Origin: Actinomycetes bacterium
GTDB lineage: Bacteria; Actinomycetota; Actinomycetes; JAHEKZ01
Assembly (NCBI GenBank): GCA_027118455.1
Contig: JAJAYZ010000038.1
Coordinates: 4,422 to 68,421 of the forward strand
DNA length: 64,000 nt
Direction: 5' to 3'
In this document: positions 3,511 through 64,000 of the stretch, piece after piece
Position numbering within the stretch: position 1 is the first letter of the stretch
How the letters are laid out: the number at the start of each line of letters is the position of its first letter
Made by a program: the position numbers and the translations under genes
Notes under the pieces: model-generated
What the model was told of the DNA's origin: nothing
The model's database searches: none
Seen by the model: the letters and a program-made list of their open reading frames with translations, nothing else

Positions 3511-3729
3511 CAGGGGAGACGAGAATTTGTCTCTGCAGACTTCGACTACGCAAAATCACCCCTGAAGGCCGCTCGACGAACGTCACCCGTTTGCCGTCGT
3601 CATTTGTGCCTAGTCTCGATGCGCCGTCCTCCGAATGGGTGGTGAAGGCATTGATGGAACCGTTACAAATGCCGCGATTCACCCGCTCGTGCTGCTCATG
3701 AGTAGCATTGGGGGAGAGGTGGGTGGCTA

Positions 3730-4905: not shown

Positions 4906-4981
4906 GATCGTTGGGCTTGTTGGTGGCCTTCATTTGCCGCGTAAGGCCGCACGGCTCATGTTTGACCTGAGGGGAATCTGA

Positions 4982-6127: not shown

Positions 6128-6131
6128 GACT

Positions 6132-7550: not shown

Positions 7551-7683
7551 ACACCCCGCGTGTCTGCCGAATGGGGGAACTGCTGCTCATCGCAGGAGTT
7601 CTGACGCGGGCCGCCAGGCTGCCGGGTACCGTTGGCCTGGAATCATGCGACGTCAACGCGGGCGATCAGGGAAGAAGAGGGAG

Positions 7684-11404: not shown

Positions 11405-11480
11405 TGTGGGGTGATCAGCCTTGACGAAAGGCACGGCGGCCGACGACAGCTAGACCTACGCTAGACGGGCGGGCCGCACG

Positions 11481-12344: not shown

Positions 12345-12787
12345 CCCCGGCGTGTCGCCCGGGCATCGAGAGCGACACCATCGACAGTAGATGCTGGTGG
12401 GGGCCACTCGACCTGGAGCCGACTCATGTTCGACGCTGGTGCTGTTCTTGTTCTCGCCATTGTTGGTGGCGTGTGTGAGGTCGGGCTCGGGCTTTTGGTC
12501 GGTGGCATGATCGCCCACGGACAGCGTCACTCGCCATCGCAGTGGGAGTCGCACCTGGAGGGAAGTACTTTGAGTAACCGGACAGTCACCGAGCGCTAGC
12601 GAGCGTCGGTGGTCCCGGCCGAGATTGGCCGTTGGTCACTGCACACCCGGTCATTAGGGCATACTGAAGCGGCGCGCCGGCTCAGCTGTCCAGTCACTTC
12701 TGGTCTGTCCGGGTTCGCTCCCGCAATACTCTCGATCAGTGGTCAGCGCTCATACGCGTGCGTTCAGTCACAGCGAATGACAAGGGG

Positions 12788-14866: not shown

Positions 14867-14883
14867 CGGTTCCCCGGCTTTCC

Positions 14884-15813: not shown

Positions 15814-15837
15814 GAGTGAATCATCACTGAACGATCC

Positions 15838-18114
15838 CTAGGCTGCTTTCGCTCGAGCACGCGCCCAGCGCGAGAACGTGCGGCCGGTCGCTCGGCGTGT
15901 GGTTCGCGCCCCCAATCGAACCTGTCCTTGGATGCGGCGTACTGGTCCGCGAGGTCCTAGGATCGCCCGTTTGGTTCGAAACACGGCGCGGCTCGTGTGC
16001 TGCGACATCGGCGAACCGGATGTGAGCTGGTCTGCCGAGAGCCCGGTGAATGCGAGCCATCGGCGCTCGTAGGAGAGATCGCTGACGGGTAGGTCGTCGG
16101 TGTATCCGGCGGGGACGCCTCGAAAGGCGTAGCTCGATGCGAAGGGTGGCCGATCGTTGGTGTACCGGTGCAGGAACTCGAAGTCGACAATCTTCAGGCC
16201 GGCTCGGTGGTCAAGGATGAAGTTCTGTGGCTTGGCGTCGACGAGATCGAAGCCGTGCTCATGGATCTGGCGGAGGACGTCAACCATGTCGCGCACCAAG
16301 GGGAGGGGCACGAGTTTCCTGGACGTCATGAGTGGTGCCAGCTGATCCCGGTAATAAGGGCAGCTGAACCAGTTGTCCCCGCTTGCGAGGAGAGGTGGGA
16401 CCGCAGCCACCTCGGGGGAGAGCTGCTGCAGTGCCAGTAGCTCTCGTTCCATGTGACGGAGGTAGCCAGCCGCGAAGGTCTTCCGGACGACCCGACCGTC
16501 CGCGCCATCGACGACCTCGACCTTGGCCCGGCGTCCTCGGCTGAGCTGCCTCACGACCGGAACGGTGGTCCGGTAATGCACTCGACGCTGGCCGACGAGC
16601 TCTTGCAGCTCCTCCGCAGCCTGGGGGAGTGCGATGGTCACGTACTCCCAGGCCTCGAGCTCGTTGTCCGACGAGTGGACAGGGTTGAATCGCTCATGCG
16701 CCGAAACCCGAGCAGCCACAAGGTCGCGGACCCGCTCCTTGGCGACGAGAACGTCGTTGTTGGACAGGCGCGGGTATTTGTCGAGTGCCTTTCCGACGGG
16801 GGGAGCCGGCGCATAATGGACGGCCACGACAACTGTTACCGGTCCGCCGCCGCTCACTGGGAAGGGGCCCTGGCCCCAGTTGCCGCCACGTGTTTGTTCA
16901 GCGCAACGCGCCGCGGCAGCTGAGTCGAGCTCAGAGGTCATCAGCACCTCGAACCCGAGGTGATCCAGAAGCGCCAGGACCTCGTCGGTGCCGACCACCG
17001 ATGCGAGTCGCTCTCTGAGCAAGAAGACGGTCGTCTCAGGTGGGATCACCGGCTCTGGCTTCGCTGCGAAGAACTTCGCCTTGATCCACAGATTCCCATC
17101 TGCGAGTCGAACGAGCGTATCCACTGACGGACGCCAGCCCTCACCTGCCAGATATTCATCAACACCGTCGAGGGAAGCATCAAGGCGTACCCCGACCGAC
17201 CGAGCCAGGGATTCGAGGGCTGACTTGTAGTCGTGCTCGGGGTCGGTCACTGTTTCAGCAACGTGCGCTGATGCCAGACCCGAGCTCATTCCCTTGTGGT
17301 AGGCGGCGTGGTAGGCAAGCGAACGGAGATGGTCCAGCGGCGCAGGAACGCGGCAGCCGCTGGAATGAACGACGGCTCGATCGAGCAGCTGACGCGCCAA
17401 CTGCGGGGGGTAGTAGGCCATGTTCTTGTAGTCCGATGACGGCAGGCCGGTTTCGCTGTACAGGTCGAGAGGGATCGTTCCTGGCTCCTCGTTCATCAGG
17501 GTTCCGAAGGCGGCCAGGTGTTCATCTGTGACCAGAACGTCGAGATCTTCGCCCGGCTCCATGTGGGGCAAGTCCTCGAACCAGCGCAGAGCTGCGTACT
17601 GGATTCCGGCGGCATCCAGACGTTGGATCAGCCCCTCTGGACCCCACACGGGCGAGAAGTACCGACGCGTCCTTGGTGGTGCCTGGCGTGAGATCTCCAG
17701 GAGGTCGAAGCGGGTTTCCCCAACATCGAACCTACCCCTGGGCGTGACCGCTCGAGAGAACCGAGCCGCGGTCTTTGCGAGTCGGGTTTCGACGTCTCGG
17801 GCGCTCCACCCGGACTCCAGTGCTACGTAGCGGACGTGGCGAAGCTCACCGACCATCCAGAGCCGTTCGGCAAAGGCGGGTCGAACGATCAGCACGTCGG
17901 TGCTGCATCGGCGGACTTGGTCCGGTGAGGCAAGCTCATGAAAGCGCCGCTCAAGGCCATCTGCCTGCGACCGGACGGTATGCAGCGCCGCTAAAGTGAC
18001 GAGTCCGAGGTAGCGGGTGACGCCATCGGAAGCCAACTCGTGCGCGAGGTCGGGACTCTCAACCCCGAAATCGAGAATGCGCGTCTCAGGTTGGAGGAAG
18101 GTGGGCAACTGCAC
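15838..18114 (-). CDS. Large multidomain protein with C-terminal APH/choline-kinase-like phosphotransferase core; N-terminal two-thirds uncharacterised
   Basis: 758 aa. The C-terminus has the ordered set RVVRKTF (Lys) .. ELLALQQL (Glu) .. FDLVDAKPQNFIL (catalytic HxDxxxxN-like loop) .. IVDFEF (DFE/DWE Mg-binding). This points to a protein-kinase-like phosphotransferase of the aminoglycoside/choline kinase type. The middle region contains GEDLDVLVTDEHL, possibly nucleotidyltransferase-like (weak). Confidence 0.55.
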   Translation of the reverse strand: MQLPTFLQPETRILDFGVESPDLAHELASDGVTRYLGLVTLAALHTVRSQADGLERRFHELASPDQVRRCSTDVLIVRPAFAERLWMVGELRHVRYVALESGWSARDVETRLAKTAARFSRAVTPRGRFDVGETRFDLLEISRQAPPRTRRYFSPVWGPEGLIQRLDAAGIQYAALRWFEDLPHMEPGEDLDVLVTDEHLAAFGTLMNEEPGTIPLDLYSETGLPSSDYKNMAYYPPQLARQLLDRAVVHSSGCRVPAPLDHLRSLAYHAAYHKGMSSGLASAHVAETVTDPEHDYKSALESLARSVGVRLDASLDGVDEYLAGEGWRPSVDTLVRLADGNLWIKAKFFAAKPEPVIPPETTVFLLRERLASVVGTDEVLALLDHLGFEVLMTSELDSAAAARCAEQTRGGNWGQGPFPVSGGGPVTVVVAVHYAPAPPVGKALDKYPRLSNNDVLVAKERVRDLVAARVSAHERFNPVHSSDNELEAWEYVTIALPQAAEELQELVGQRRVHYRTTVPVVRQLSRGRRAKVEVVDGADGRVVRKTFAAGYLRHMERELLALQQLSPEVAAVPPLLASGDNWFSCPYYRDQLAPLMTSRKLVPLPLVRDMVDVLRQIHEHGFDLVDAKPQNFILDHRAGLKIVDFEFLHRYTNDRPPFASSYAFRGVPAGYTDDLPVSDLSYERRWLAFTGLSADQLTSGSPMSQHTSRAVFRTKRAILGPRGPVRRIQGQVRLGARTTRRATGRTFSRWARARAKAA

Positions 18115-32185: not shown

Positions 32186-33637
32186 TTACGGGCCGGGCGC
32201 AGCACGCGCTCCGGGTAACCGTGCAGCCAGCAAGGGCGAGACGAACTGCTGGCCAGCTGGCCCCTGGAAGTGCAGCGCACCGTTCGCACCCTCGTTAGAA
32301 GAGTCGGGCCTGATCTGCCATCCGCCTTCGTGCACGGCGCGGTGATGGTGCCGGCAGAGCAGCAGACCGTTGACCAGGTCGGACTGGCCGCCCCTGGCCC
32401 ACGGCACCAAGTGGTGAGCGTCGGTGTGTACCGAAGGTCGGTTGCAGCCAGGGAAGCGGCATCCGCCGTCTCTTGTTGCCAGAGCCCGCCGCTGGGCGGG
32501 GGTGAAGACGCGCACCTCGCGTCCGAGGTCGAGCGGGATGCCGTTGGGGTCGACAAGGAGCCTGCGTACTGAGGCATCGCAGGCGAGTCTGCTGGCGGCG
32601 TCGGACGTGAGCCACACGGCGGAGCCGGTTGTCCCTGGGATGCGCGCTGGGTGGGACCGCTCGCCGGTCAGGGTTGCTAGTTCGACCTCGACCTGCATCG
32701 CGGTCGTGGCTCCAAACAGCGCCGGCAGCTCGCCAGATCGAACTGCCGCGGCCACAACCTCGGCGAGGCCGTCGGCTCGTCGTTGGTCTGAGGTGCGGGT
32801 GTCATCGGGGCCGTTCGGGACGAGGAAGGGTGCGAGCGCAGCCGAGAGGCCGGCTGCCGTCTCCGCGTCGAGGACTCCGTCGATCGAGTGCATGCCGTCG
32901 AGCATCGGCGCGAGGCTGAGCCACCGACGTCCGAAGTCCTCCTCGGCGTGGCGAGCGGAGCCGTCAGGGTCGACGACGTGGCGCAAGTGTCGCCCCGCAC
33001 TACGCAAGTCGTCGATTCCGAGCTGACTGCCGAGTCCGGCTAGGACCTCGACACCAGCGGGCCGGGCTGAAGGCGGCAGAGCGCGAGCGGTGCGGTGGAT
33101 CGTGCGGAGGTGTTCGTAGGAGAGGTGACCGTTGGTTTCTGATGCACCGCCTGCTGAGTGCGAACCGTGGGGTTCGGCCACGAGTGCCGCGACCGGTGCG
33201 GCGAGCAGGTCGCCGGTGGTGCGGGCGATTCGCACTCGCTCGGAGGCCTCACCCGAAGCCATGCCCAGTGCGCCGCGGAGCCACGACTGTGTCGAGGCTG
33301 CCGCGTGCAGCACCTCACCGTCGCCGTTGGCGTCGAAGTTTGCGAGCACACTGGTGAAGGCCGCTTCGGCGGCGTCGATCACCAGTCTCAGACCCGTAAG
33401 CCACGCGGCCCGCTCCTCCGCCGTGGCTGGCCCTCCAGCCGATACCCCCGCCGCGCAGCGGGCGAGCGTACGGGTGTCGGCAAGGACATCCGCTACGGCA
33501 TCGGGTAAGACAGGGGTGGGAAGCACTGGGGGAGACCTCCGCGGTGGACGACGATGGGTGATGTCGGCAATCTCGTCAGTGGTGCGGTCTCCGTGAGCCA
33601 GCCCGTGTTCGCTTCTCATTGCCAACTTCGAACACAT
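32186..33637 (-). CDS. DUF222 + HNH endonuclease (actinobacterial 13E12-repeat-family type)
   Basis: C-terminal HNH: CRFPGCNRPSVHTDAHHLVPWARGGQSDLVNGLLLCRHHHRAVHEGGW. A long helical N-terminal domain precedes it. Confidence 0.85.
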   Translation of the reverse strand: MCSKLAMRSEHGLAHGDRTTDEIADITHRRPPRRSPPVLPTPVLPDAVADVLADTRTLARCAAGVSAGGPATAEERAAWLTGLRLVIDAAEAAFTSVLANFDANGDGEVLHAAASTQSWLRGALGMASGEASERVRIARTTGDLLAAPVAALVAEPHGSHSAGGASETNGHLSYEHLRTIHRTARALPPSARPAGVEVLAGLGSQLGIDDLRSAGRHLRHVVDPDGSARHAEEDFGRRWLSLAPMLDGMHSIDGVLDAETAAGLSAALAPFLVPNGPDDTRTSDQRRADGLAEVVAAAVRSGELPALFGATTAMQVEVELATLTGERSHPARIPGTTGSAVWLTSDAASRLACDASVRRLLVDPNGIPLDLGREVRVFTPAQRRALATRDGGCRFPGCNRPSVHTDAHHLVPWARGGQSDLVNGLLLCRHHHRAVHEGGWQIRPDSSNEGANGALHFQGPAGQQFVSPLLAARLPGARAAPGP

Positions 33638-52934: not shown

Positions 52935-53455
52935 GCTCGCCGGACAGTGAGACCGTGTCGCCGCCGCGATCGGCAGGTGTCTGGGTTGCCGTCGATCCTG
53001 GCTCGGTGCGTACCGGGGTTGCGGCCTGCGACAGGGGTGAGGTGCTCGCCTCGCCCGTTACCACGCTGGGCCGCGGTGCGGCGGTGAGTGGGGTCGAGGC
53101 GATCGTCGCTGAACGCGAGGCGATCGGGGTGATCGTCGGCCTTCCGCTGTCCCTATCCGGCGCTGAGGGAACCGCAGCCCAGACAGCACGGTCTTATGCG
53201 GAGGACCTCGCAACGGCACTGGTGGTGCCGGTCTATCTGGTCGATGAACGGCTTACGACGGTGTCGGCCGGTGCTGCGCTTCGACAAGGGGGCCACGACT
53301 CTCGCTCGGCGCGCCGAGTGGTGGACCAGGCCGCAGCCACGGCACTGTTGCAGGGAGTGCTCGACGCTCGTGCCGCACGCGGCGTCAACTGTGGCGATGT
53401 GCTGGACGGTGGGCTCGGTGAGCGGGTCAACCCTGAAGGAGGAGACCGGTCATGA
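52931..53455 (+). CDS. ruvX: Holliday junction resolvase-like protein RuvX/YqgF
   Basis: [18 protein letters not shown] .. [15 protein letters not shown]. The start overlaps the alaS stop. Confidence 0.85.
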
Positions 53456-54540
53456 CCGCACCGATTCCTCCCGCGCCGCACCCGCACGGGCACCCAAGAC
53501 GTCGCCGGGCGCATCCGGCTCTGATCGTATTGGTGCTGCTGGGCTTGTTGGTCGGGGGCGCCGGGGTGGGCATGCGCCTGCTGGGCGGATCGCTGGGTGG
53601 GTTCGGCGCCAGTGACGACTATCTCGGGCCGGGCAGCGGTGAGGTCGTGATCGAGGTCGGTCCCGGTGACACCTCGTCGGCGATCGGGTCCACTTTGGAA
53701 CAGGCAGACGTAGTGGCCAGCGCTCAGTCCTTCGTCGATGCTGCCGTCGCTGACGACCGGGCGCTCGGGATCCAGCCGGGTTCGTACTCGATGCTTGCGC
53801 AGATGTCAGCAGCCGGAGCGTTGGAGCGGCTGCTCGATCCGGAGTCCCGCGTCCAGACCGAGGTGGCGATCCCCGAGGGTTTACGGCTCACCGACACCGT
53901 CGATCGCCTGGTTGCGGCCAGCGACCTTCCGCGCCGCGACTTCGAGCAGGCCCTGCAAAACCCACGCCGCCTCGGGCTCCCTGACTACGCCGATGGCAGC
54001 GCAGAGGGATTCCTCTTCCCGGCGACGTACACCTTCGACCCAGGGACATCGGCCGAGCAGATGCTCAAAGCCATGATCGACCGGTACGAGCAGGCCGCCC
54101 AAGACGTGGGCCTGGTCGACGGCGCTGTCGCTGCCGGTTACACGCCCCGTGAGGCGCTGACGGTTGCGAGCATGGCGCAGGCCGAGGTTGCCGAGCGTGA
54201 CTTCGGCAAGGCGTCGCGGGTGGTGGCCAACCGGCTCGAGCTCGGGATGACCCTCGGGTTCGACTCCACCGTCAACTACGCGCTTGGCTCCGATGACCTG
54301 ACGCTGGCCCAGGATCAGCTCGCTGTCGACTCCCCGTACAACACCTACGTCAACACCGGGCTGCCGCCTGGTCCGATCAACGCGCCAGGCGAGGCGGCGA
54401 TGGCCGCGGCGATTGCGCCACCCCCTGGCGACTGGCTCTACTTCGTGGCGGTCTCCCCAGACAGTGACAAGACCCAGTTCACCGCCGACTACCAAGAGTT
54501 CCTGCAGTTCAAGGACGAGTTCTACAGCCAGGTGCCGTGA
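53452..54540 (+). CDS. mltG: Endolytic murein transglycosylase MltG (YceG family)
   Basis: N-terminal TM ALIVLVLLGLLVGGAGV and a YceG domain (..LQMDSTVNYALG..). It follows ruvX as in many bacteria. Confidence 0.85.
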   Translation: MTAPIPPAPHPHGHPRRRRAHPALIVLVLLGLLVGGAGVGMRLLGGSLGGFGASDDYLGPGSGEVVIEVGPGDTSSAIGSTLEQADVVASAQSFVDAAVADDRALGIQPGSYSMLAQMSAAGALERLLDPESRVQTEVAIPEGLRLTDTVDRLVAASDLPRRDFEQALQNPRRLGLPDYADGSAEGFLFPATYTFDPGTSAEQMLKAMIDRYEQAAQDVGLVDGAVAAGYTPREALTVASMAQAEVAERDFGKASRVVANRLELGMTLGFDSTVNYALGSDDLTLAQDQLAVDSPYNTYVNTGLPPGPINAPGEAAMAAAIAPPPGDWLYFVAVSPDSDKTQFTADYQEFLQFKDEFYSQVP

Positions 54541-55412
54541 TGGCGCTGCCCGTGCGCCGGGCTGGCGTCCTTGGCCATCCGATCCAGCACTCGTTGTCGC
54601 CGGTCCTGCACCGAGCGGCGTACGACGCCCTCGGCATGGACTGGGACTACTCAGCCATCGATGTGACAGCCGATGGGCTAGCGGTGTTCCTGGACTCCCT
54701 TGACCCCGAGTGGGTGGGGCTCTCGCTCACCATGCCTCTCAAAGAGGCGGTGATTGATCTGCTCACTGAGGTCGAGCCGCGAGCTGCCACCGTGCGTGCA
54801 GTAAACACCGTGATCCTCGACGGCTCTGGTCGAAAAGGCTTCAACACCGATATCACCGGGCTGCAGTCGATCCTTTCCGATGCCCTGATTGGTCCTTCCA
54901 GCACGGCGACCGTTGTGGGGGCCGGCGCGACAGCGCGGTCCTCGGTGGCCGCTCTCGCAGCAGTAGGCGTGCCGCGGGTCGTTCTTCTGGCCCGCCGCTC
55001 CGAGGCGGTGGCGGAGTTGGCCGCGCTCGCTGATGTGCTCGAGATCTGCGGTGAGCCAGGGGCCTGGCCGCCCTCGCTCGACGCACTCGGCGCCGACGTC
55101 GTGGTCAGCACTGCTCCCGCCGATGCGGCCGCCGGCTTTCCGGTTCCCACCAGACCAGGCCTGTTGGTCGATGTTCTGTACCACCCCTGGCCGACGCCCC
55201 TGGCTGCTGCCTGGAAAGAGTCAGGAGGCCGAGTGGTTGGCGGTCTGGAGCTCCTCGTCCGTCAGGCGGTCGCCCAGGTCACCCTGATGACGGGCCGCAC
55301 GCCACCAGTCGGCGTGTTGCGGAGCGCCGGATCTGCTGCGTTGTCCGCCAGCGGAGGCCCGGCAGGTCGGGTCGGGCCTGGTCGCGAAGATATCGCTCAA
55401 GCGGAGCAGTAA
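54537..55412 (+). CDS. aroE: Shikimate dehydrogenase
   Basis: AGVLGHPIQHSLSPVLHRAAYDALG N-terminus and the NADP Rossmann VVGAGATARS. Confidence 0.85.
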   Translation: MMALPVRRAGVLGHPIQHSLSPVLHRAAYDALGMDWDYSAIDVTADGLAVFLDSLDPEWVGLSLTMPLKEAVIDLLTEVEPRAATVRAVNTVILDGSGRKGFNTDITGLQSILSDALIGPSSTATVVGAGATARSSVAALAAVGVPRVVLLARRSEAVAELAALADVLEICGEPGAWPPSLDALGADVVVSTAPADAAAGFPVPTRPGLLVDVLYHPWPTPLAAAWKESGGRVVGGLELLVRQAVAQVTLMTGRTPPVGVLRSAGSAALSASGGPAGRVGPGREDIAQAEQ

Positions 55413-55486
55413 CACAGCCGAAGCACCCTCTAAGGTCTGGTCGGTTCTCCCGACCGGCGACGCGGTCCGATCGCGAGAGGTGCACC

Positions 55487-56197
55487 ATGTCAGATCCCTA
55501 CGCCGCCGCACTGAGCGGTGCCGCAGGCCGTTCGCTTCAGCTTGACCAGGTTTTGCGGGCACTGCTGCGTCAGGCCCCGGACGTCGAGGCTGCAGCTGTT
55601 GTCTCGTTCGACGGTTTGCCGATGGCGTCAGCGCTGCCGGCCGGCATGGACGAGGACCGGGTGGCGGCGATGTCTGCTGCCCTGCTCTCGCTCGGCGAAC
55701 GGGCGGCGCAGGGCCTGGGCCGCGGTGACCTTTCCCAGGTCTATGTCGAGGGTGACAACGGCACGGTCTTCTTGGTCAGCGCCGACGACGAGGCGGTCCT
55801 GGTTGCCGTCGGACGAGTTGGCGCCAAAGTCGGCCTGATGCTCTTCGAGGTCAAGCAGGCAGCTGCTGCGGTCGGCACGGCGCTGCGTATCGACACCTTC
55901 CCCGAGACTCCGGTGCCGCTGCTCGTGCAGGTGGCTCCCGAACCACCGGCGCAGCACGTCCAGCCGATGCAGCCGGTGCAGCCGGTGCAGCAGGAGCCCC
56001 AGCCGGTGCAGCCAGTGCAGCCGGTGCAGCAGGAGGCAGTACCCCAACTTGCGCAGTCCAATGATGGGCAGCCGAGCAACGGTGGCGAACGCGAGGATGC
56101 TCATTCATCCATCGACCGATTCCCGCACCTCACACCGGTCCAGCCAGAAGACCGTCGGCCAGCTGTTGTGGCCTCCGACGGCAGCTCCTGGTCCTGA
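55487..56197 (+). CDS. Roadblock/LC7 (MglB/CvnB-like) domain protein with Q/P/V-rich C-terminal tail
   Basis: The N-terminal 125 aa (..AAAVVSFDGLPMASALPAGMDEDRVAAMSAALLSLGE..VYVEGDNGTVFLVSADDEAVLVAV..) fit the Roadblock/LC7 fold. The C-terminal tail is QPMQPVQPVQQEPQPVQPVQPVQQE. Confidence 0.72.
   Translation: MSDPYAAALSGAAGRSLQLDQVLRALLRQAPDVEAAAVVSFDGLPMASALPAGMDEDRVAAMSAALLSLGERAAQGLGRGDLSQVYVEGDNGTVFLVSADDEAVLVAVGRVGAKVGLMLFEVKQAAAAVGTALRIDTFPETPVPLLVQVAPEPPAQHVQPMQPVQPVQQEPQPVQPVQPVQQEAVPQLAQSNDGQPSNGGEREDAHSSIDRFPHLTPVQPEDRRPAVVASDGSSWS
55961..56035. repeat. Tandem 9-bp repeats (CAGCCGGTG) encoding (QPV)n in the Roadblock protein tail
   Basis: Seen directly in sequence. Confidence 0.75.
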
Positions 56198-56254
56198 CCG
56201 ACCTTTGAAGAACCCGCCCTAGCCAATCCCGTCATCGAAGGATCGTGACCTGAC

Positions 56255-57550
56255 GTGAAGCTCGAAGGTTCGCTTGATGCCTTCAGTCTTCCGGATGTCT
56301 TCCAGCTGCTGAGCCTGACGAAGAAGTCCGGAGGACTTCACCTGACCAATGGTCAGGTCTCCGGCAGCGTCTACTTTGCCGATGGCATGGTCACCGGCGC
56401 AGTTTCCGACATCTCTCGCCAAGCTCTCGCTCGCCGCCTAGTTGGCCTCGGTGCTGCCGACGACGCGGCATTACGGCGTGCTGTCGAACGGGCCGCCAAC
56501 GAAGGTGCTGGGATCGCTCGCGCTCTGGTCGAGGCGGGATCGGTTGACGGTTCGCTCGTGCAGCGCCTGGCACTCGAGCAGGCGGTTGACGCGGTCTTCG
56601 ACCTGCTGCGCTGGCCCAACGGCGACTTCGCCTTCGGCATGGGCGAGGAGAACCCCGACGACGTCGGGCTCGTCGTCACCGCTGAGCAGATCGTTGGGGA
56701 GGCAACGACACGGCGCGAGTCATGGGAGGCGCTGTCGCGGCTGATCCCGAGTCCGGATGTCGTGCTGACCATGCCGGTCGTTCTTCCCGAGAACACCACG
56801 TTGGACCGGGACGAGTGGGCTCTGCTGGCCCTCATCGACGGAACCCGTTCGGTTGGCGACCTCGTCGAGATCTCCGGTGCCGGGCAGTACCCGGTCGTCT
56901 CCACCCTGGCGACACTCATCCAGCGGGGTCTGCTGGTCCTTCGGGATGAGGAGAGCCCCGATCACGTCTCTCTTGTCATGCGTCGTCAGCAGCTGCTGGC
57001 GCCACTGGAGTTCTCGGCGGCGCCCCCCGCATCGGCTCAGGCCGGTCTACCGGATGTGCATATCCAGGCCAGGGGAGTTCCTCAGGGTGCGGTGGCTCTC
57101 GACGCGACGATCCCAGCGACAGCTGGCGGCCCACTGGCACCGGCGGCGCCGGTTCCCCCAGTCATGCCACCGTCGGTACCAGCTGGGGTACCTGCTCCGG
57201 CTGCTGCCGCGGCCGCCCCTGGCATGCTCCCAGGGGCCCACGACCCGGCCAACATCGTTCCTCCGCGCCCTGAGCCGTTCCTTCCCAAGAGGGACGTCGA
57301 TTACCCAGAACCTGTTCGAGCGCCTGGCTTTGCTGCTCCGGCCGCCTCCACCGCTAGGGCTCCCGTCAGCGCGCCCCCCGGAGCTCCTCCTGGCATGGCC
57401 GGGGCGCTCTCGGGTGGCATCGCTCGGGGTGCCAGCGGCGTCGGAGTGGCGACGGCCGCGGCACCAGCAGGTGACAGTGCGATCGAACGTGATCCAACGG
57501 TCAACCGCAGCCTGATGCTGCGCCTCATCGCCGGCGTCCGGGGGCTCTGA
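56255..57550 (+). CDS. DUF4388 (PATAN) domain protein with Pro/Ala-rich C-terminal half
   Basis: N-terminal MKLEGSLDAFSLPDVFQLLSLTKKSGGLHLTNGQVSGSVYFADGMVTGA matches the DUF4388 opening. A second DUF4388-like unit follows (..LALIDGTRSVGDLVEISG..). The protein ends in a PAPAAPVPPVMPP-type low-complexity region. Confidence 0.68.
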   Translation: MKLEGSLDAFSLPDVFQLLSLTKKSGGLHLTNGQVSGSVYFADGMVTGAVSDISRQALARRLVGLGAADDAALRRAVERAANEGAGIARALVEAGSVDGSLVQRLALEQAVDAVFDLLRWPNGDFAFGMGEENPDDVGLVVTAEQIVGEATTRRESWEALSRLIPSPDVVLTMPVVLPENTTLDRDEWALLALIDGTRSVGDLVEISGAGQYPVVSTLATLIQRGLLVLRDEESPDHVSLVMRRQQLLAPLEFSAAPPASAQAGLPDVHIQARGVPQGAVALDATIPATAGGPLAPAAPVPPVMPPSVPAGVPAPAAAAAAPGMLPGAHDPANIVPPRPEPFLPKRDVDYPEPVRAPGFAAPAASTARAPVSAPPGAPPGMAGALSGGIARGASGVGVATAAAPAGDSAIERDPTVNRSLMLRLIAGVRGL

Positions 57551-57551
57551 C

Positions 57552-58127
57552 ATGGCAACCAAACAACGTCGTCGGCACGGTGGTCAGGCCGTCAAGGTCG
57601 TCATCACCGGGCCGTTTGCGGCCGGGAAGACCACACTGATCCGCACGATCAGTGAGATCACCGTGCTTTCGACCGAGCGCGGAATCACCGACAGCACGAG
57701 GTCGCGCAAGAACGAGACAACGGTCGCAATGGACTTCGGGCGGATCACCATCGACCGCGAGCTGGTGCTCTACCTGTTCGGTACCCCAGGACAGGAACGC
57801 TTCGACTTCATGTGGGAGATCCTCGGTGAGGGGATGCTCGGCTACGTCCTCCTCCTCGATGCCAACCGCCCGGAGTCGCTGGCTGAAGCCGTCGGCATCC
57901 TTGAGGCGTTTCGAAAGATGGCCAGGGTCCCGTTCGTGGTGGCGTTGAACCGCACCACAGGGGTCGACGAGGTCGAGGAGGCCCGCATCCGGCAGGCCCT
58001 CGGGGTCGACAGCCGAGTGGCGCTCGTGCCCTGTGACGCCACCAACAAGGATTCGGTCAAAGCCGTGCTGCTGGCTCTGCTCTACTCGGTCTTGGACGAG
58101 GTCGAAACGGCGACAGCCGGCGTCTGA
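57552..58127 (+). CDS. Small Ras-like GTPase (MglA/CvnD-type ATP/GTP-binding protein)
   Basis: P-loop VVITGPFAAGKTTL, switch II LFGTPGQERF and a degenerate G4 (VALNRT) typical of conservon-type GTPases. The ATG overlaps the upstream stop. Confidence 0.75.
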   Translation: MATKQRRRHGGQAVKVVITGPFAAGKTTLIRTISEITVLSTERGITDSTRSRKNETTVAMDFGRITIDRELVLYLFGTPGQERFDFMWEILGEGMLGYVLLLDANRPESLAEAVGILEAFRKMARVPFVVALNRTTGVDEVEEARIRQALGVDSRVALVPCDATNKDSVKAVLLALLYSVLDEVETATAGV

Positions 58128-58144
58128 CGCCGAACGGACCCGAT

Positions 58145-58486
58145 ATGCGCTGGCTGACCCGCCGCTCAACGCAGGCATCACCTAAGGGGCGACATGCCGC
58201 TGGACGGGTAGCTCCCCTCCCCGCTGTGACTTCGCCTGCCTCAGCGTCGGCTGCAGGTGCGGCGGCTGCGGTTGCCGAACAGGTACCGCTCCGGGCGGCG
58301 ATCGTCCACCCTGTCCATGAACGGACGCCTGAGGCGATGCGAGGCATGACACCAGAGGCAACGCCTGTGGCGATGGCCAGTGGCGTCTACCTCGGCTTCT
58401 CTGACGGTTCTGGCCACGAGCTCGCGGTTGGCGACCCAAGGGTGAGTGCTTTTCGGGCAGTGGCCCGCACTCTCGTCGGCGTCTGA
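58145..58486 (+). CDS. Hypothetical protein (possible fourth member of the GTPase module)
   Basis: 113-aa ORF 17 nt after the GTPase gene. It is Ala/Arg-rich with no motif. Coding status is uncertain. Confidence 0.25.
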   Translation: MRWLTRRSTQASPKGRHAAGRVAPLPAVTSPASASAAGAAAAVAEQVPLRAAIVHPVHERTPEAMRGMTPEATPVAMASGVYLGFSDGSGHELAVGDPRVSAFRAVARTLVGV

Positions 58487-58593
58487 CCGGGCTCCGAAGG
58501 GTCGGTTCGCTCAAGACGGGCGGTCATCGGCCGATCTAGTCCAAGACATTGGTGCCCGGGGGACAGACCCTGTTGGGGCGACCGAGGGTGGAG

Positions 58594-60270
58594 GCCGTTG
58601 GCGTGAAGCAGCTGGGCGACATCCTGGTGCAGGACGGTCTGGTCACCGAAGACCAGCTCTTCGCAGCGTTTCGTGAGCACAAGGAACAGGGCAAGGCTCT
58701 CGGTCGGGTCCTCGTCGACCAGGGAGTCCTCACCGAGTCACAGCTGGTTGCAGCGCTCGCTCAGCAGATCGGACTGGAGTTCGTCGACCTCGGCGACTAC
58801 CCCGTTGATGGAAGCATCATCGCCAGGGTCTCCGGAGCCATCTGCCGTAAGCACTCGGCCCTGCCTTTGCGGATCGATGACGAAGGCAAACTGCTGCTCG
58901 CCATGGCTGACCCGGCCAATGTCTTTGCGATCGACGACATCCGCTCCATCACCGGATTCGAGGTTCGCCCCGTCGTTGCCACGCGCGCCGACGTGCTGGG
59001 TGCGATCGATCGATACTTTCGCGCCGACTCCGACCTGGACGACCTCACTGCCGTCATGCACGGCGACGAGGAGGAGGAGGACCTCGCTGGCCTGAAGGAG
59101 GTTGTCGAGGAGGCACCGATCGTCAAGTTCGTCAACCTCCTGATCAGTCAAGCGATTCAAGACCGAGCTTCTGATATTCACCTGGAGCCGGGCGAGCATT
59201 CTCTGGTAGTTCGCTATCGCATCGACGGCGTTTTGCATGAGGTAATGAAGTCACCGAAGAATATTCAGTCAGGCGTCATCAGCCGGCTGAAGATCATGTC
59301 GGACATCAACATTGCCGAACGTCGCATCCCGCAGGACGGTCGACTTTCGGTCAACCACCAGGGAAAGAAGATTGACCTCCGGGTGGCGACCCTGCCCACC
59401 GTCTGGGGCGAGAAGGTCGTCATGCGTATCTTGGACAACTCCAATGCGCAGATGGCGCTCTCTGACCTCGGGTTCTCGGAGTTCAACCGTGAGGTCTTCG
59501 CCCAGAGCTTTTCCAAGCCCTATGGGATGATCCTGGTGACCGGACCGACCGGTTCGGGAAAGTCCACGACGCTCTACGCGACGCTCAACCAGATCGCCCG
59601 CCCAGAGGTCAACGTCATCACCGTCGAGGACCCGGTCGAGTACCGTCTCCCCGGCATCAACCAGGTTCAGACCAATGTCAAAGCCGGCCTCACCTTCGCG
59701 GCGGCGCTGAGGTCGATCCTTCGCTGTGACCCAGATATCGTGCTGATCGGTGAGATTCGTGACCACGAGACCGCCCGGATCGCGGTGGAAGCTGCACTCA
59801 CCGGCCACCTCGTCCTCTCCACGCTGCACACCAACGACGCACCGTCGGCCGTCACCAGGCTCACCGAGATGGGGCTGGAACCGTTCTTGGTCGGGTCGGC
59901 GCTGGACTGCGTGCTCGCCCAGCGTCTTGCTCGTCGGCTCTGCTCCAAGTGCAAGGAGGCGTACCAACCGACCCCCGATGCCTTGGTTCAGGCTCGCTTC
60001 CCCTGGGTCGACGGCCAAGAGCTACCCACCCTCTACCGCGCGGTGGGGTGCCCGGCGTGCTCCAAGACCGGCTACCGCGGCCGGCTCGCCCTGCACGAGG
60101 TGATGGCGGTGTCTGAGGCCGTTGAGCGCCACGCGGTCGAGCACGCCTCGGCGACCGTCATCTCCGAGACGGCGCGTGCTGAGGGCATGCGCACCCTGCG
60201 TGACGACGGGATGTTCAAAGTTGCCAGCGGAGTCACCACGATGGACGAGATCCTGCGCGTCGTCGTCTAG
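58594..60270 (+). CDS. pilB: Type IV pilus assembly ATPase PilB (GspE family) with N-terminal tandem MshEN-type c-di-GMP-binding motifs
   Basis: Two consecutive 24-aa motifs, KQLGDILVQDGLVTEDQLFAAFRE and KALGRVLVDQGVLTESQLVAALAQQ. Walker A VTGPTGSGKSTT, Asp box, Walker B ILIGEIRD and a tetracysteine CSKC..CPAC are present. GTG at 58594 follows GGAGG; the ORF opens at 58549. Confidence 0.9.
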   Translation, partial: AVGVKQLGDILVQDGLVTEDQLFAAFREHKEQGKALGRVLVDQGVLTESQLVAALAQQIGLEFVDLGDYPVDGSIIARVSGAICRKHSALPLRIDDEGKLLLAMADPANVFAIDDIRSITGFEVRPVVATRADVLGAIDRYFRADSDLDDLTAVMHGDEEEEDLAGLKEVVEEAPIVKFVNLLISQAIQDRASDIHLEPGEHSLVVRYRIDGVLHEVMKSPKNIQSGVISRLKIMSDINIAERRIPQDGRLSVNHQGKKIDLRVATLPTVWGEKVVMRILDNSNAQMALSDLGFSEFNREVFAQSFSKPYGMILVTGPTGSGKSTTLYATLNQIARPEVNVITVEDPVEYRLPGINQVQTNVKAGLTFAAALRSILRCDPDIVLIGEIRDHETARIAVEAALTGHLVLSTLHTNDAPSAVTRLTEMGLEPFLVGSALDCVLAQRLARRLCSKCKEAYQPTPDALVQARFPWVDGQELPTLYRAVGCPACSKTGYRGRLALHEVMAVSEAVERHAVEHASATVISETARAEGMRTLRDDGMFKVASGVTTMDEILRVVV

Positions 60271-60474
60271 GCCCCGCTCGCCGCAACCCTCAGCCCGCAA
60301 CCCTCAGCCGATGGCGGGGTCGGTGGCCGCTTCTGATGACAGGCGGCCCTCGCAACTTAAATGACTAGTTCTCCAGGAGTCGGCTCAAGGGGTGACCTCT
60401 GGACGCCGAAAGACCGCTACAGGGGTACCGCCGCCGGTGGTGCTCGTGGTGTACGCCCAAGGAGGCAGTTCGAC

Positions 60475-62127
60475 GTGGAGACCACAGAGTTCAGCGGCGC
60501 GCCGCACGGTGATGACTCTCGCCCCGACGCTGCAGCACCAGGCTCGGACGCGGGGTTCTTCAGTCCAGCGCCAGCCCCCACGACAACCGACGAGCCAGAT
60601 ACCGAGTATGTGTCAGAAGCCGTCGCCGAAGTCGCTCCAGAGGCCGGCCAGGACCCCGCCGTTGACTCGGTGCCCAGCTTTGACCCCACATCTTTTAATG
60701 CCGGTTCGTTGCTGGCTCCTGAGGAGGCGGTACCGGACAACGCCGCGGCGTTGCCGATGTCGCTGGCCATCGCCGCTGAAGAAGCGGCCACCGTCGACGT
60801 CGCGAGTGAGCCGGAACCAGCCTCCTTCGACTACCAGGCTTTCCACGGTGACCAGGGCGGCGCTGCGGAACAGGGCGTGGCTGCGGTCGACGAGCCTCCG
60901 AGTGGGGCTGACGAGGGGTTGAGCGCAGCCGTGGAAGCGGCATCAGAGCCTGAGTACGTGCAGGCATACGCCGTCCCCGAGCAGATGGTGGAACTTGCTG
61001 ACGCGGAGTCCGAAGAGATCGCCTACTCGCGCGCCTCCACTGAACCGTCGCTGGCTGGGGACGAGATCGTCCTGGTCGAGTTGCTGCTGCACATGCTCGA
61101 GATGGGTGCATCAGACCTGCACATCACCGCAGGCGCCCGTCCTGCGATCCGGGTCAACGGTGAGCTGGCCCAGATGGACCAGTACCCCGTCCTGACGCCT
61201 CCGGTCATCCAGCGGGTGATGTACGCCGCAATCACCCAGCGCCAGCGAGAGGTTTTTGAAGAGGAGTTCGAGCTCGACTTCGCCTACTCCGTACCAGGAC
61301 GGGCCCGCTTCCGAGTGAACATGTACCGCCAGCGGGACTCCGTCGGTGCTGCCTTCCGCATCATCCCCTTCGAGATCAAGAAGCTCGAGGATCTCGGTGT
61401 GCCGACCCAGGTGGCCAACTTCGCGGCCCTACCGCGTGGGTTTGTCCTCGTCACCGGTCCGACCGGTTCTGGGAAGTCGACGACGCTGGCATCGCTGCTC
61501 GACCTGGCGAATCGGCAGCGCAAAGAACACATCATGACGTGTGAGGACCCGATCGAGTTCTTGCACCGCCACCAGTTGAGCCTGGTCAACCAGCGCGAGG
61601 TCGGCGAGGACACCAAGTCGTTCAAGAACGCCCTCAAGCACGTTCTGCGTCAAGACCCCGACATCATTCTCGTCGGTGAGATGCGTGACCTCGAGACGAT
61701 CGGGGTGGCGCTGACCGCCGCAGAGACTGGACACCTCGTCTACGCGACGCTGCACACCCAGGACGCCGCCCAGACGATCGACCGCATCATCGACGTCTTC
61801 CCGCCGCACCAGCAGCAGCAGGTGCGTGCTCAGCTCGCCCAGTCACTGCAAGGGGTGGTCTGCCAGACCCTGGCCCGCACCACCGACGGCAAGGGGCGGG
61901 TGGTGGCTTGCGAGATCTTGGTGGCTACCCCGGCGATCCGGAACCTGATCCGTGAGGGGAAGACCCACCAGATCTACAGCGCGATGCAGGCCGGAACCAA
62001 GTTCGGCATGCAGACCATGGACCAGCATCTGGCCGATCTCGTCAACAAGGGACGCATCACTTACGAGACCGGTACCGAGAAGTGCCACCACATCGAAGAC
62101 TTCAACCGGCTGACCGGCCGAGGCTGA
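60475..62127 (+). CDS. pilT: Type IV pilus retraction ATPase PilT-like, with a roughly 190-aa acidic low-complexity N-terminal extension
   Basis: Core: IVLVELLLHMLEMGASDLHITAGARPAIRVNGEL, Walker A VTGPTGSGKSTT, ILVGEMRD and the PilT His box ATLHT. GTG at 60475 follows AAGGAGG. The ORF opens at 60361. An internal ATG at 60985 would give a canonical-size PilT. Confidence 0.85.
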   Translation: METTEFSGAPHGDDSRPDAAAPGSDAGFFSPAPAPTTTDEPDTEYVSEAVAEVAPEAGQDPAVDSVPSFDPTSFNAGSLLAPEEAVPDNAAALPMSLAIAAEEAATVDVASEPEPASFDYQAFHGDQGGAAEQGVAAVDEPPSGADEGLSAAVEAASEPEYVQAYAVPEQMVELADAESEEIAYSRASTEPSLAGDEIVLVELLLHMLEMGASDLHITAGARPAIRVNGELAQMDQYPVLTPPVIQRVMYAAITQRQREVFEEEFELDFAYSVPGRARFRVNMYRQRDSVGAAFRIIPFEIKKLEDLGVPTQVANFAALPRGFVLVTGPTGSGKSTTLASLLDLANRQRKEHIMTCEDPIEFLHRHQLSLVNQREVGEDTKSFKNALKHVLRQDPDIILVGEMRDLETIGVALTAAETGHLVYATLHTQDAAQTIDRIIDVFPPHQQQQVRAQLAQSLQGVVCQTLARTTDGKGRVVACEILVATPAIRNLIREGKTHQIYSAMQAGTKFGMQTMDQHLADLVNKGRITYETGTEKCHHIEDFNRLTGRG

Positions 62128-62141
62128 CGGGAGCGTCACTC

Positions 62142-63365
62142 ATGGGAAACACGACTTTCCAGTACCAGGTCAGGGATAAGACCGGAAAGATCGTCTCCGG
62201 CACCCTCGAGGCCGAGTCGCAGTCTGCGGTGGCGCAAAAGCTCACCAGCATGGGCTACGCCACGGTCAGCATCTCCAAGGCCGGCGGCGGGATGAAGACC
62301 GATCTGAAGATTCCCGGCTTCGGCGGCAAGGTCAAGCTCAAGGACCTCTCAATCATGTCGCGCCAGTTTGCCACGATGATCAACTCTGGTCTCTCGCTGC
62401 TTCGTGCCCTTAACATCTTGTCGGAGCAGACACCTAACAAAGTGTTGGCCCAGGTGCTGGCCGAGGTACGTAACGACGTCGAGACGGGTAACCCCCTCTC
62501 CGGCGCACTGGCTTCGCATCCGCGGATCTTCCCGCCGCTGATGGTCAACATGGTGCGCGCCGGTGAGGTCGGCGGCTTCCTTGATGGCGTATTGCTGCAG
62601 ATCGCTGAGAACTACGAGGCCGAGGTCAAGCTGAAAGGCAAGATCAAGAGCGCCATGACCTACCCGGTCGTCGTCTTCGTGATGGCCATCCTGGCTGTCA
62701 CCGGAATGCTGCTCTTCATTGTCCCGGTTTTCGCCAAGATGTTCGAAGGCCTGGGCGCACCACTACCCCTCCCGACCAGGATCTTGGTGATGCTCAGCGA
62801 AATCATCAAGGTCGGGTTCCCATTTATGGTCGTCGGCTTCATCGTCTTCGTCGTGGTGTGGCGCAAGATCAAGCATAAGCAGCAGGTAGCGAACATCCTC
62901 GACCCGATCAAGCTCAAGATGCCGGTATTCGGACCCCTCATGCAGAAGATCGCCCTAAGCCGGTTCACCCGCAACTTCGGAACCATGCTGCAGGCCGGTG
63001 TGCCGATCCTGCAGAGCCTCGACATCGTGGCCGATACATCCGGAAACGTTGTGGTCGCGCGGGCGGTTCGTGACGTCCAGGAGAGTGTGCGCAACGGCGA
63101 GTCGCTGACCGCTCCCCTCTCCCAGCACGCAATCTTCCCACCAATGGTGGTGCAAATGATGTCAGTCGGGGAAGACACTGGACAGCTTGACGAGATGCTT
63201 CACAAGATCTCTGAGTTCTACGACCAAGAGGTTGAAGCGACCACTGAAGCGCTTACCTCCCTGATCGAGCCGCTGATGATCGCCTTTCTCGGTGGGATTG
63301 TCGGCGCAATGATCATCGCCATGTACATGCCCATCTTCAAGGTCTTCGACCTTATCCAGGAGTAA
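62142..63365 (+). CDS. pilC: Type IV pilus inner-membrane platform protein PilC (GspF family)
   Basis: Two T2SSF repeats (..SGLSLLRALNILSEQTPN.. and ..AGVPILQSLDIVADTSGN..). ATG at 62142; the ORF track opens at 62082. Confidence 0.9.
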   Translation: MGNTTFQYQVRDKTGKIVSGTLEAESQSAVAQKLTSMGYATVSISKAGGGMKTDLKIPGFGGKVKLKDLSIMSRQFATMINSGLSLLRALNILSEQTPNKVLAQVLAEVRNDVETGNPLSGALASHPRIFPPLMVNMVRAGEVGGFLDGVLLQIAENYEAEVKLKGKIKSAMTYPVVVFVMAILAVTGMLLFIVPVFAKMFEGLGAPLPLPTRILVMLSEIIKVGFPFMVVGFIVFVVVWRKIKHKQQVANILDPIKLKMPVFGPLMQKIALSRFTRNFGTMLQAGVPILQSLDIVADTSGNVVVARAVRDVQESVRNGESLTAPLSQHAIFPPMVVQMMSVGEDTGQLDEMLHKISEFYDQEVEATTEALTSLIEPLMIAFLGGIVGAMIIAMYMPIFKVFDLIQE

Positions 63366-63590
63366 CGGGTCAGCAACGCGCTAAAGATTGTCGCCGTAGG
63401 GGTCGAAGCAGTAGCTGTAAAGAGCCAACCGGCCAGAAAGGGCACACCTGCCGCGAGGCAGGGTCGCAAAGCCAGGGGACCTTCGTGGTCAGCCCAGCTA
63501 CCTCGGTTGATTGACCACAAATTTTTCGTGGTGGACCACCCAAGGGCGAGCGCCGCACGGCTCACCGCACAGTGGGAAAGGGACAAAGAG

Positions 63591-64000
63591 ATGCTCGCTC
63601 GTATCCGCAAGGCCATGGAAGAGCGTGAGGGTGGCTTCACCCTCATCGAGCTCCTGGTCGTCATCATCATCATCGGCATCCTTGCCGCTATCGCAATTCC
63701 GGTGTTCCTCAACCAGCGCGCCAAGGCAACCGAGGCAGGCATGAAGTCCGACCTGCGCACGGTGGCCAACGAGCTTGAGACCTTCTTCACCGACACGCAG
63801 ACATACCCAGCGACGGCTGCTGTTGCGCAGGCTTCTGCCGGTGCCAACGTGGTCATCACTGGTGGAAACTCGGTCAAGGTTTCTGACCCGTTGACGGCCA
63901 TGGTCTACACCAGGAACGCCGGTGGTCAGTACTACTGCATCCGCGCAACCAATACCAAGGTTTCGAATGTTTGGGGATACGCCAGCAACGCTGGTGGCCT
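63591..64000 (+). CDS. pilA: Type IV pilin (prepilin with class III signal peptide), 3' partial
   Basis: MLARIRKAMEEREGG|FTLIELLVVIIIIGILAAIAIPVFLNQRAK: a G|F cleavage/methylation site, E+5 and a hydrophobic alpha-1 helix. It is absent from the ORF track because it runs off the window. It is preceded by a roughly 225-bp low-GC intergenic region. Confidence 0.85.
   Translation, partial: MLARIRKAMEEREGGFTLIELLVVIIIIGILAAIAIPVFLNQRAKATEAGMKSDLRTVANELETFFTDTQTYPATAAVAQASAGANVVITGGNSVKVSDPLTAMVYTRNAGGQYYCIRATNTKVSNVWGYASNAGG

Follow-up and report, generated by a model that had tools for sequence, protein, structure and literature searches.

In Vibrio cholerae MshE and Thermus thermophilus PilF, a four-helix MshEN_N bundle clamps one molecule of cyclic di-guanosine monophosphate (c-di-GMP) (PMC5013675; PMC11731258), each 24-residue motif of the bundle binding one guanine, chiefly by hydrophobic contacts (Wang et al. 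2016, PMC5013675). In the bundle, the Leu residues form stacks with the guanine bases, and separate central hydrophobic residues build its core (PMC5013675). The guanine is held via the backbone amides of the L-G-x turn and a triangle of Leu residues, and the terminal Gln touches the ribose and the phosphate. In Actinomycetota, BldD and RsiG are known c-di-GMP receptors, and the type IVa pili of this phylum are almost unstudied. Here we describe pilB, the gene of a type IVa pilus extension ATPase in a 64-kb stretch of DNA from an Actinomycetes bacterium (contig JAJAYZ010000038.1; hereafter, the window), the product of which has an N-terminal MshEN domain lacking the Arg at the first position of both motifs, together with a c-di-GMP-I riboswitch in the leader of pilA, which encodes the major pilin, in the same cluster. 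The data covered are the window and 20-kb pieces of the loci of relatives (80 loci, designated by L numbers).

Motif pair and predicted fold of the PilB N-terminal domain

The initial annotation had read the region 58594–60270 as encoding a PilB assembly ATPase with two back-to-back 24-residue MshEN-type motifs at its N-terminus. The identity of the ATPase was borne out by its T2SSE domain and by synteny with pilT, pilC, and a prepilin gene, and the motif pair is present; the start had to be moved to the GTG at 58603, which is preceded by GGAGG at 58590–94, with 58594 being a GCC codon within a longer open reading frame (ORF) opening at TTG 58549. The two motifs are also not directly adjoining, but are separated by a canonical five-residue spacer. 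The first 63 residues of PilB align with residues 8–69 of V. cholerae MshE (PDB entry ID, 5htl) without gaps (E, 3.8e-11), so that residue n of PilB corresponds to residue n+6 of MshE, and the N-domain matches 5htl with an E value of 5.7e-17. The curated NCBIfam model NF053729 (c-di-GMP_motif, 'cyclic di-GMP-binding domain, MshE-related') covers residues 3–55 over 53 of 53 positions (E, 1.6e-17), with scores of 63 bits for full PilB and 68.5 bits for the 63-residue fragment against a cutoff of 38. In the AlphaFold2 model of residues 1–154 (predicted local distance difference test score, 88.6), four helices (residues 4–10, 16–29, 33–39, and 45–55) are followed by an alpha/beta subdomain, and the top PDB match of the N-domain model in Foldseek was 5htl_B, MshE with bound c-di-GMP (E, 5e-13; template modeling score, 0.65/0.70), with the GSPII domains of PilF as the next-best matches. 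Taken together, the MshE alignment, the NF053729 score, and the fold match argue for homology and not for chance, and by this homology the N-terminal domain of PilB is a genuine MshEN domain.

Comparison with the key residues of MshE shows that L10, G11, G18, L25, L39, G40, G47, L54, L58, and Q61 are identical in PilB, and that R9, L29, Q32, and R38 are changed to Q3, F23, H26, and A32, respectively. Of the Leu, Gly, and Gln positions on which the initial annotation had made its proposal depend, the four Gly are all retained, as are Gln55 and five of the six Leu that stack on the ligand (the sixth, MshE L29, being Phe23), and the positions of L29 and Q32 are substituted. The published strict consensus, RLGxx(L/V/I)(L/V/I)xxG(L/V/I)(L/V/I)xxxxLxxxLxxQ, is departed from in motif I by Q at position 1, F at position 21, and H at position 24, and in motif II by A at position 1, the remaining specified positions agreeing in both motifs. 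Against the consensus written in the initial annotation, motif II fits completely and motif I fits except for its last position, where His replaces Gln; the 'x' placed there at position 1 had hidden the missing Arg.

The same residues recur in the family. A pattern search recovered the motif pair from 113 of the 120 closest homologues (76–100% identical); all 113 have Q at position 1 of motif I, and most have an aromatic residue (Y or F) at position 21. At position 24 of motif I, 61 sequences have H and 52 have Q, an alternation suggesting that His and Gln may be interchangeable hydrogen-bond donors at this position. Motif II begins with A, S, or G; its L, G, G, L, L, and Q do not vary, and the other key positions are likewise constant except position 17 of motif I (L in 111 and M in 2). 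The key-residue pattern extends to actinobacterial orthologues with identities as low as about 57%, some of which carry P or L at position 1 of motif II, two residues that are compatible with c-di-GMP binding at the first motif position in PilF (PMC11731258).

Predicted binding of c-di-GMP by PilB

On the basis of this homology, residues 1–55 of PilB would form a four-helix MshEN_N bundle clamping one c-di-GMP as in MshE and PilF, in which Gln3 and Ala32 would stand in for the stacking Arg residues and His26 for one Gln, and the occupancy by c-di-GMP would modulate pilus extension. The published binding data bear on each of these replacements. In MshE, a single change at any of the conserved hydrophobic residues lowers the affinity by >10-fold, and earlier-reported changes of Arg9, Asp12, and Gln32 shift binding by at most about 5-fold (PMC5013675). 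PilF's GSPII-B domain binds c-di-GMP at 6 nM with K167 and L196 as its two motif-initial residues (Neissner et al. 2024, PMC11731258); its K167L variant binds at 2 nM, and restoring Arg results in weaker binding (PMC11731258). GSPII-C, the second PilF site, has P335 at a motif-initial position and shows an MshEN-like affinity of 324–460 nM (PMC11731258). A hydrophobic residue at position 1 can accordingly increase the affinity, with K, L, and P there still permitting binding, and 8 of the 10 direct hydrogen bonds are provided by backbone amides of the L-G-x turn (PMC11731258). In the calibration of NF053729, the PilB fragment (68.5 bits) stands beside MshE (86.2 bits), PilF-B (63.4 bits), PilF-C (62.1 bits), and Myxococcus xanthus PilB (62.5 bits), and its profile score fits the binder class.

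Several observations weigh against binding, or against a regulatory consequence of it. Besides the strict consensus, two looser patterns have been published, an extended one (R/K/L at position 1) and a relaxed one, [RKPN]hGxxhhxx[GAS]hhxxxxhxxxhxx[QNKRYWST]; at position 1, Q3 and A32 fall outside all three, and His26, at position 24 of motif I, falls outside the relaxed set [QNKRYWST], so that neither motif passes the published patterns. Motif I of PilB ends in His like that of PilF GSPII-A, a non-binder in which motif I is near-perfect but His-terminated and motif II is degenerate (PMC11731258). The importance of the terminal Gln is illustrated by Q190E, which drops the affinity of GSPII-B to about 500 nM from 6 nM in the wild type (PMC11731258), a roughly 80-fold effect by our arithmetic. 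NF053729 also passes GSPII-A (55.2 bits), and was hence rejected as a discriminator between binders and non-binders; with this non-binder above the cutoff of 38, sequence alone cannot settle binding. Several PilB and GspE proteins with an MshEN fold are non-binding, including Pseudomonas aeruginosa PilB and XpsE, and the ATPase rate of Clostridium perfringens PilB2 is unchanged upon c-di-GMP binding, so binding alone would not prove control of assembly. Neither the main text and supplement of Wang et al. (2016) nor literature searches yielded a prior report in which c-di-GMP is bound by an MshEN or PilB from an actinobacterium, and no tested actinobacterial MshEN was found in the literature. 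Finally, the initial annotation had pointed to GGDEF/EAL genes nearby as a place to look; no GGDEF, EAL, or HD-GYP gene was found in the 64-kb window by a six-frame regular-expression search and a Pfam search of 46 ORFs.

Such observations could be explained if the MshEN fold were kept solely as a structural N1 domain, for example for docking to the PilM/PilC platform or to a partner, with no physiological binding of c-di-GMP, which would act on expression only, via the pilA riboswitch and possibly RsiG–WhiG. This explanation accounts for the loss of the first-position Arg in both motifs and for the His ending motif I, as in GSPII-A, and it has a parallel in Xanthomonas citri PilB, which binds PilZ through an MshEN-type domain (PDB ID: 7lkm, among the fold matches); the strong conservation of the motifs could equally stem from packing of the helix bundle. 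On the other hand, known non-binders have several core substitutions, as in XpsE with G11V, L29R, G40L, L54H, L58C, and Q61V (PMC5013675), none of which is found in PilB. The ligand-contacting Leu residues, which are distinct from those of the bundle core, are invariant across the family, and the first motif position is demonstrably tolerant. We therefore regard a purely structural role of the domain as rather unlikely, and lean towards the prediction that PilB binds c-di-GMP; that it does so, how tightly, and in which direction control would run, here and at the riboswitch, are all inferred.

Candidate genes of c-di-GMP turnover were seen near the pilus cluster in two relatives. In L026, a 993-residue protein with the domain order PAS x3-GGDEF-EAL is encoded at 14268–17249 on the minus strand, convergent with and abutting pilC, and in L057 an ORF with an EAL motif, detected by regular expression, lies just after pilC (at ~14737, minus strand). 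These are the only two loci among those sampled with an EAL-type ORF beside pilC. The pilC gene of L026 appears to be split into two ORFs, possibly by an assembly frameshift.

Predicted c-di-GMP-I riboswitch ahead of pilA

The region between the pilC stop codon (63365) and the pilA ATG (63591), 3.1 kb downstream of pilB, contains a c-di-GMP-I riboswitch aptamer, matching the Rfam model RF01051 with 51.3 bits (gathering score, 35) over model positions 1–87 of 87, and being the sole Rfam match in a scan of the whole window. In total, 15 copies were found in 13 sources (the window and 12 loci), each ahead of a pilin-type coding sequence: the aptamer occupies the same place in L001–L006, L008, L009, L018, L020, and L058, and is present in three copies in L036. 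The aptamers of the relatives score 42–55 bits on RF01051, those of L018 and L020 being assigned instead to the sister model RF03167 (c-di-GMP-I-GGC; 65–66 bits vs a threshold of 59). Across the alignment of the 15 copies, every cell of P2 is paired (100%), with two compensatory pairs (UA/CG, 8:7; CG/UG/UA), and P3 has one compensatory pair (GC/AU, 12:3); the covariation score exceeds those of all 500 shuffles and of every slid control. A covariance model built from these copies retrieved no others from the 80 loci, and the loci of Actinotalea, Demequina, Acidimicrobiia-type, and other members have no aptamer within 10 kb. In L036, from an Actinomycetota metagenome-assembled genome (MAG), three riboswitch-plus-pilin units follow one another at 14640–16200, and the middle pilin frame appears to be disrupted, with no in-frame start codon.

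The aptamer in the window belongs to the canonical class. The sister model scores it at 55.3 bits, under its 59-bit threshold, and the consensuses of the two models differ at one core position (GACGCGAAG in RF01051 vs GACGCAAAG in the GGC model). The residue following the P2-closing GC is the canonical A in 15 of 15 copies, within the invariant CGCAAAGC, where the GGC model has G, and a reading of the window aptamer as a GGC variant was rejected on account of this diagnostic position. The unpaired G preceding the P2-opening GC is likewise canonical, and so is the ACC that follows P3; together with the A in CGCAAAGC, we take these to be the equivalents of G20, A47, and C92 of Vc2.

How the aptamer might control expression was surveyed in the remainder of the leader. 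RNAalifold proposes that the 3' strand of P1, CCUCGG, pairs alternatively with CCAAGG, and that the invariant GCGAGCGCCGCA pairs with UGCUCGCUCGC, which includes the start codon; the columns of this start-codon-occluding helix never vary, and the helix is without covariation. A simple terminator and promoter scan of the pilA leader returned nothing of relevance and no intrinsic terminator, and in ViennaRNA folding of 13 leaders, neither imposing the aptamer nor leaving it free nor blocking P1 altered the accessibility of the Shine–Dalgarno sequence or AUG in a consistent way. Upstream of pilB, an Rfam E-value scan of 58050–58700 found no credible RNA element. The GTPase gene and pilB are 475 nt apart (58128–58602), more than a promoter and leader need, and this gap has no match to an Rfam family.

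The conservation of this predicted riboswitch indicates c-di-GMP use in the lineage, with pilin expression as a part of the c-di-GMP regulon. By the same prediction, the locus is tied to c-di-GMP independently of PilB, and the placing of the pilin in the regulon raises the prior for a functional MshEN site on PilB. The supply of pilin would then be set by the riboswitch separately from the action of PilB, and the pilus would be tied to c-di-GMP at the RNA and protein levels, as in Clostridioides difficile.

The riboswitch also bears on the identity of the ligand. The MshEN domain of PilB might bind another cyclic dinucleotide, such as 3'3'-cyclic GMP–AMP (cGAMP), owing to its changed polar contacts (Gln3, His26, Ala32, and the aromatic residue 23), and MshEN is reported to bind cGAMP weakly (PMC5013675). 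The changed residues are exactly those making side-chain contacts, and the L018 and L020 riboswitches are above the threshold of the variant model. To our knowledge, the ligand of that c-di-GMP-I-GGC variant is not settled. The guanine specificity of MshEN is, however, conferred by the backbone amides of the L-G-x turns, which are intact in PilB, and all 15 riboswitch copies have the canonical A in CGCAAAGC in place of the G of the GGC model. Moreover, the riboswitch has G at what we take, from the Vc2 structure, to be the position where cGAMP-specific variants carry A. A ligand other than c-di-GMP is thus improbable.

Genomic setting of pilB and the pilus cluster

The coordinates of the features are listed in Table 1. 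PilB matches the Pfam families MshEN (PF05157; E, 8.8e-23) and T2SSE (PF00437; E, 3e-139), and its best NCBIfam model is TIGR02538 (type_IV_pilB), with 649.1 bits, slightly below the equivalog cutoff of 675.65. A 555-residue NCBI protein from an 'Actinomycetia bacterium' MAG is 100% identical to it, with the same start. In one NCBI record the identical protein bears the name 'Flp pilus assembly complex ATPase component TadA', which would suit a chance motif match or an annotation artefact in a gene for something other than a pilus ATPase, but we regard it as a mislabel and that reading as refuted by the E values of the motif region (1e-11 to 1e-17) and of the ATPase domain (3e-139), and by the synteny with pilT, pilC, and a type IVa prepilin gene. 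From these matches and this gene order, PilB is judged to be a true MshEN-containing PilB of a type IVa pilus cluster.

Table 1. Coordinates of features in and around the pilus cluster, as positions in the window
Feature	Position	Strand	Description
Upstream operon	55396..58127	+	Three genes below; Pfam
Roadblock/LC7 gene	55487-56197	+	236 residues
DUF4388/PATAN gene	56255-57550	+	431 residues, with Pro/Ala-rich tail
Ras-like GTPase gene	57552-58127	+	191 residues
sigma-28/WhiG-type motif	55396	+	91 nt upstream of Roadblock gene
sigma-28/WhiG-type motif before pilB	58510..58537	+	CTCAAG-N14-GCCGATCT (-10), about 93 nt upstream of pilB
pilB	58603..60270	+	Type IVa pilus extension ATPase, 555 residues, GTG start
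MshEN motif I	58609..58680	+	Residues 3-26, QLGDILVQDGLVTEDQLFAAFREH; ungapped vs MshE 9-32
Spacer	58681..58695	+	KEQGK, 5 residues, length equal to MshE spacer
MshEN motif II	58696..58767	+	Residues 32-55, ALGRVLVDQGVLTESQLVAALAQQ; aligns with MshE 38-61
C-terminal subdomain of MshEN / T2SSE_N domain	58771..59028	+	Pfam PF05157, AlphaFold2, Foldseek
T2SSE ATPase domain	59104..60258	+	PF00437; Walker A GPTGSGKS and tetracysteine motif read in translation
sigma-28/WhiG-type motif	60384..60412	+	Precedes pilT, inside ATG 60361 ORF
pilT	60475..62127	+	Retraction ATPase, TIGR01420; probable GTG start, ORF from ATG 60361
pilC	62142..63365	+	Platform protein, Pfam T2SSF x2
sigma-28/WhiG-type motif of pilA leader	63381..63409	+	CTAAAG-N15-GTCGAAGC
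c-di-GMP-I riboswitch aptamer	63431..63505	+	Rfam RF01051
pilA leader 3' of aptamer	63506..63590	+	Candidate expression platform
pilA	63591..64000	+	Major pilin gene, cut by window end; prepilin MLARIRKAMEEREGG/FTLIELLVV

The neighbours of pilB are pilT, pilC, and a prepilin gene with a class III signal, and this synteny is found in about 40 actinobacterial loci. The order in the locus is promoter–Roadblock–PATAN–GTPase, followed by pilB, pilT, and pilC, and then by riboswitch–pilA. PilT scores 484 bits on TIGR01420 (cutoff, 319), and PilC scores 413–429 bits on the NCBIfam PilC models, under their equivalog cutoffs. The prepilin motif of pilA and its start are kept in the relatives. As for the start of pilT, GTG 60475 is likelier than ATG 60361, because a GGAGG is located upstream of it at 60461–65 and a promoter motif (60384–60412) falls within the longer ORF, suggesting that the annotated start is ~38 codons too early. 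The ORF from ATG 60361 has a long acidic, low-complexity N-terminal extension, the PilT core beginning only at about residue 235 (60361–61060, plus strand).

Uncultured Actinomycetes labelled Nanopelagicales, Frankiales, and Mycobacteriales are the closest relatives, and the cultured ones, with 66–69% identity, are Actinotalea and Demequina. Housekeeping genes surround the cluster (ruvB, secDF, relA, hisS, aspS, alaS, mltG, and aroE). In nearly all sampled actinobacterial loci the pilus cluster directly follows mltG (YceG) and aroE (53452–55412 in the window; L001–L038), and this neighbourhood holds from Acidimicrobiia-type to Micrococcales loci, suggesting that the mltG/aroE site is an old, fixed insertion point for the pilus cluster in a housekeeping block.

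Elsewhere in the window, a surface-glycan cluster at 176–14866 encodes an initiating sugar transferase, two GT4 glycosyltransferases, a Wzy-like polymerase, an ABC exporter, a GT2 glycosyltransferase, two sulfotransferases, and a secreted Big_5/CBM96 protein. For two large ORFs (2035–3510 and 15838–18114), Pfam gives no match. Close to the housekeeping and pilus regions, both the window (32186–33637, minus strand) and L026 (17373–18485, minus strand) have DUF222 genes, the one in the window having HNH endonuclease domains as well.

sigma-28/WhiG-type promoter motifs and the upstream GTPase operon

A link between c-di-GMP and type IV pili in Actinomycetota is already published: the sigma factor WhiG, gated in many members of the phylum by the c-di-GMP-dependent anti-sigma factor RsiG, is shown or predicted to drive pilus genes (Schumacher et al. 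2021; 2026 preprint). For Rubrobacter, this RsiG–(c-di-GMP)–WhiG control of pilus genes is itself published, and in several further families it is predicted. The initial annotation had presented a c-di-GMP-gated type IV pilus as an additional output in Actinobacteria, and in this respect its concept had been anticipated; no riboswitch, PilB, or MshEN figures in the RsiG–WhiG papers themselves.

The WhiG/FliA rule, as published, is T(A/C)AA-N16-GCCGA or CTCA-N16-17-GCCGA, with an exact central CGA, no more than one mismatch at -10 positions 1–2, and a distance of up to 200 bp from a start codon; it is matched on the plus strand of the window at 55396, 58510, 60384, and 63381 by motifs of the form CT[CA]AAG-N14-15-xxCGA. 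In L001–L009 these four sites are conserved in position with a variable spacer sequence, and each locus has 4–7 motifs on the plus strand and 0–1 on the minus strand. Likewise, the motif CT(A/C)AAG-N15-(G)NCGAAG lies upstream of 13 of the 15 riboswitch copies, 48–52 nt before the aptamer region. Further motifs were noticed 3' of pilA in relatives, for example at 15502, 20102, and 20912 of L002. Neither whiG nor rsiG was seen in the 64-kb window.

The first of these motifs precedes an operon encoding a Roadblock/LC7 protein, a DUF4388/PATAN protein, and a small Ras-like GTPase with weak similarity to MglA (E, 3e-4). MglA–MglB–PATAN neighbourhoods, including those in Actinobacteria, have been noted by Wuichet and Sogaard-Andersen. 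The trio is syntenic with pilB in 15 loci and co-occurs with the riboswitch in 11 of the 11 sampled loci that cover the region after pilC, a co-occurrence that may reflect one clade. In relatives with 87–98% identical PilB, the GTPase is 91–97% identical; more distant clades have only Roadblock and PATAN, only PATAN, or none of the trio.

It is conceivable, as a tentative model, that the locus reads c-di-GMP at up to three levels, namely at the sigma-28/WhiG-type promoters (possibly gated by RsiG), at the pilin riboswitch, and at the arginine-free MshEN domain of PilB, and that the co-transcribed MglA/MglB/PATAN-like GTPase module, having the same promoter type, may switch the motor spatially or on and off. 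Were RsiG to repress at high c-di-GMP and PilB to require the ligand, piliation would be confined to a limited range, or to a transient, of c-di-GMP.

Comparison with known systems

The MshEN-bearing ATPase, the riboswitch, and their pairing are all of known kinds, and since the pairing itself has a precedent in Clostridia, the practical gain would be modest. If the predicted binding is true, PilB would be the first MshEN-type receptor tested in Actinomycetota, and would show the motif in a natural form that has Gln and Ala in the places of the stacking Arg residues, which would sharpen the prediction of binders across >10,000 MshEN proteins. The riboswitch–pilA unit, for its part, implies c-di-GMP control of surface appendages in these uncultured actinobacteria of freshwater and soil.

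Among the characterized proteins, PilB resembles V. cholerae MshE in the MshEN–T2SSE architecture, the fold, and the two 24-residue motifs in register across a 5-residue spacer. It differs in being hosted by a monoderm actinobacterium and in belonging to a PilB/PilT/PilC/PilA type IVa cluster instead of MSHA, and R9, L29, Q32, and R38 of MshE are represented by Q, F, H, and A. With GSPII-B and GSPII-C of T. thermophilus PilF (PDB ID: 8pdk and others), in which MshEN binds its ligand without a first-position Arg, PilB shares similar hidden Markov model scores, whereas PilF has three tandem domains and PilB one, the Q and A at the first positions of PilB are less hydrophobic than the K, L, and P of PilF, and motif I of PilB ends in His as in GSPII-A.

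At the level of the locus, the pil operon of C. difficile (CD3513-03) with its PilB1, considered together with C. perfringens PilB2, is likewise that of a Gram-positive type IVa pilus with an MshEN-type assembly ATPase and a c-di-GMP riboswitch ahead of the pilin gene. The clostridial riboswitch is of class II, whereas that described here is of class I and located before pilA only, at the end of the cluster, in another phylum, and with sigma-28-type promoters and a GTPase module in addition. In the published RsiG–WhiG system, an Actinomycetota pilus cluster is transcribed from flagellar-type TAAA/CTCA-N16-GCCGA promoters, and four such motifs are present here, where the sensing would be performed by the RNA and by the motor itself. 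In M. xanthus, PilB binds c-di-GMP via MshEN, and a Ras-like GTPase with a Roadblock partner (MglA/MglB) governs pilus activity; in the present locus, the GTPase, Roadblock, and PATAN genes are situated directly 5' of pilB with the same promoter type, the GTPase being weakly MglA-like and its role putative.

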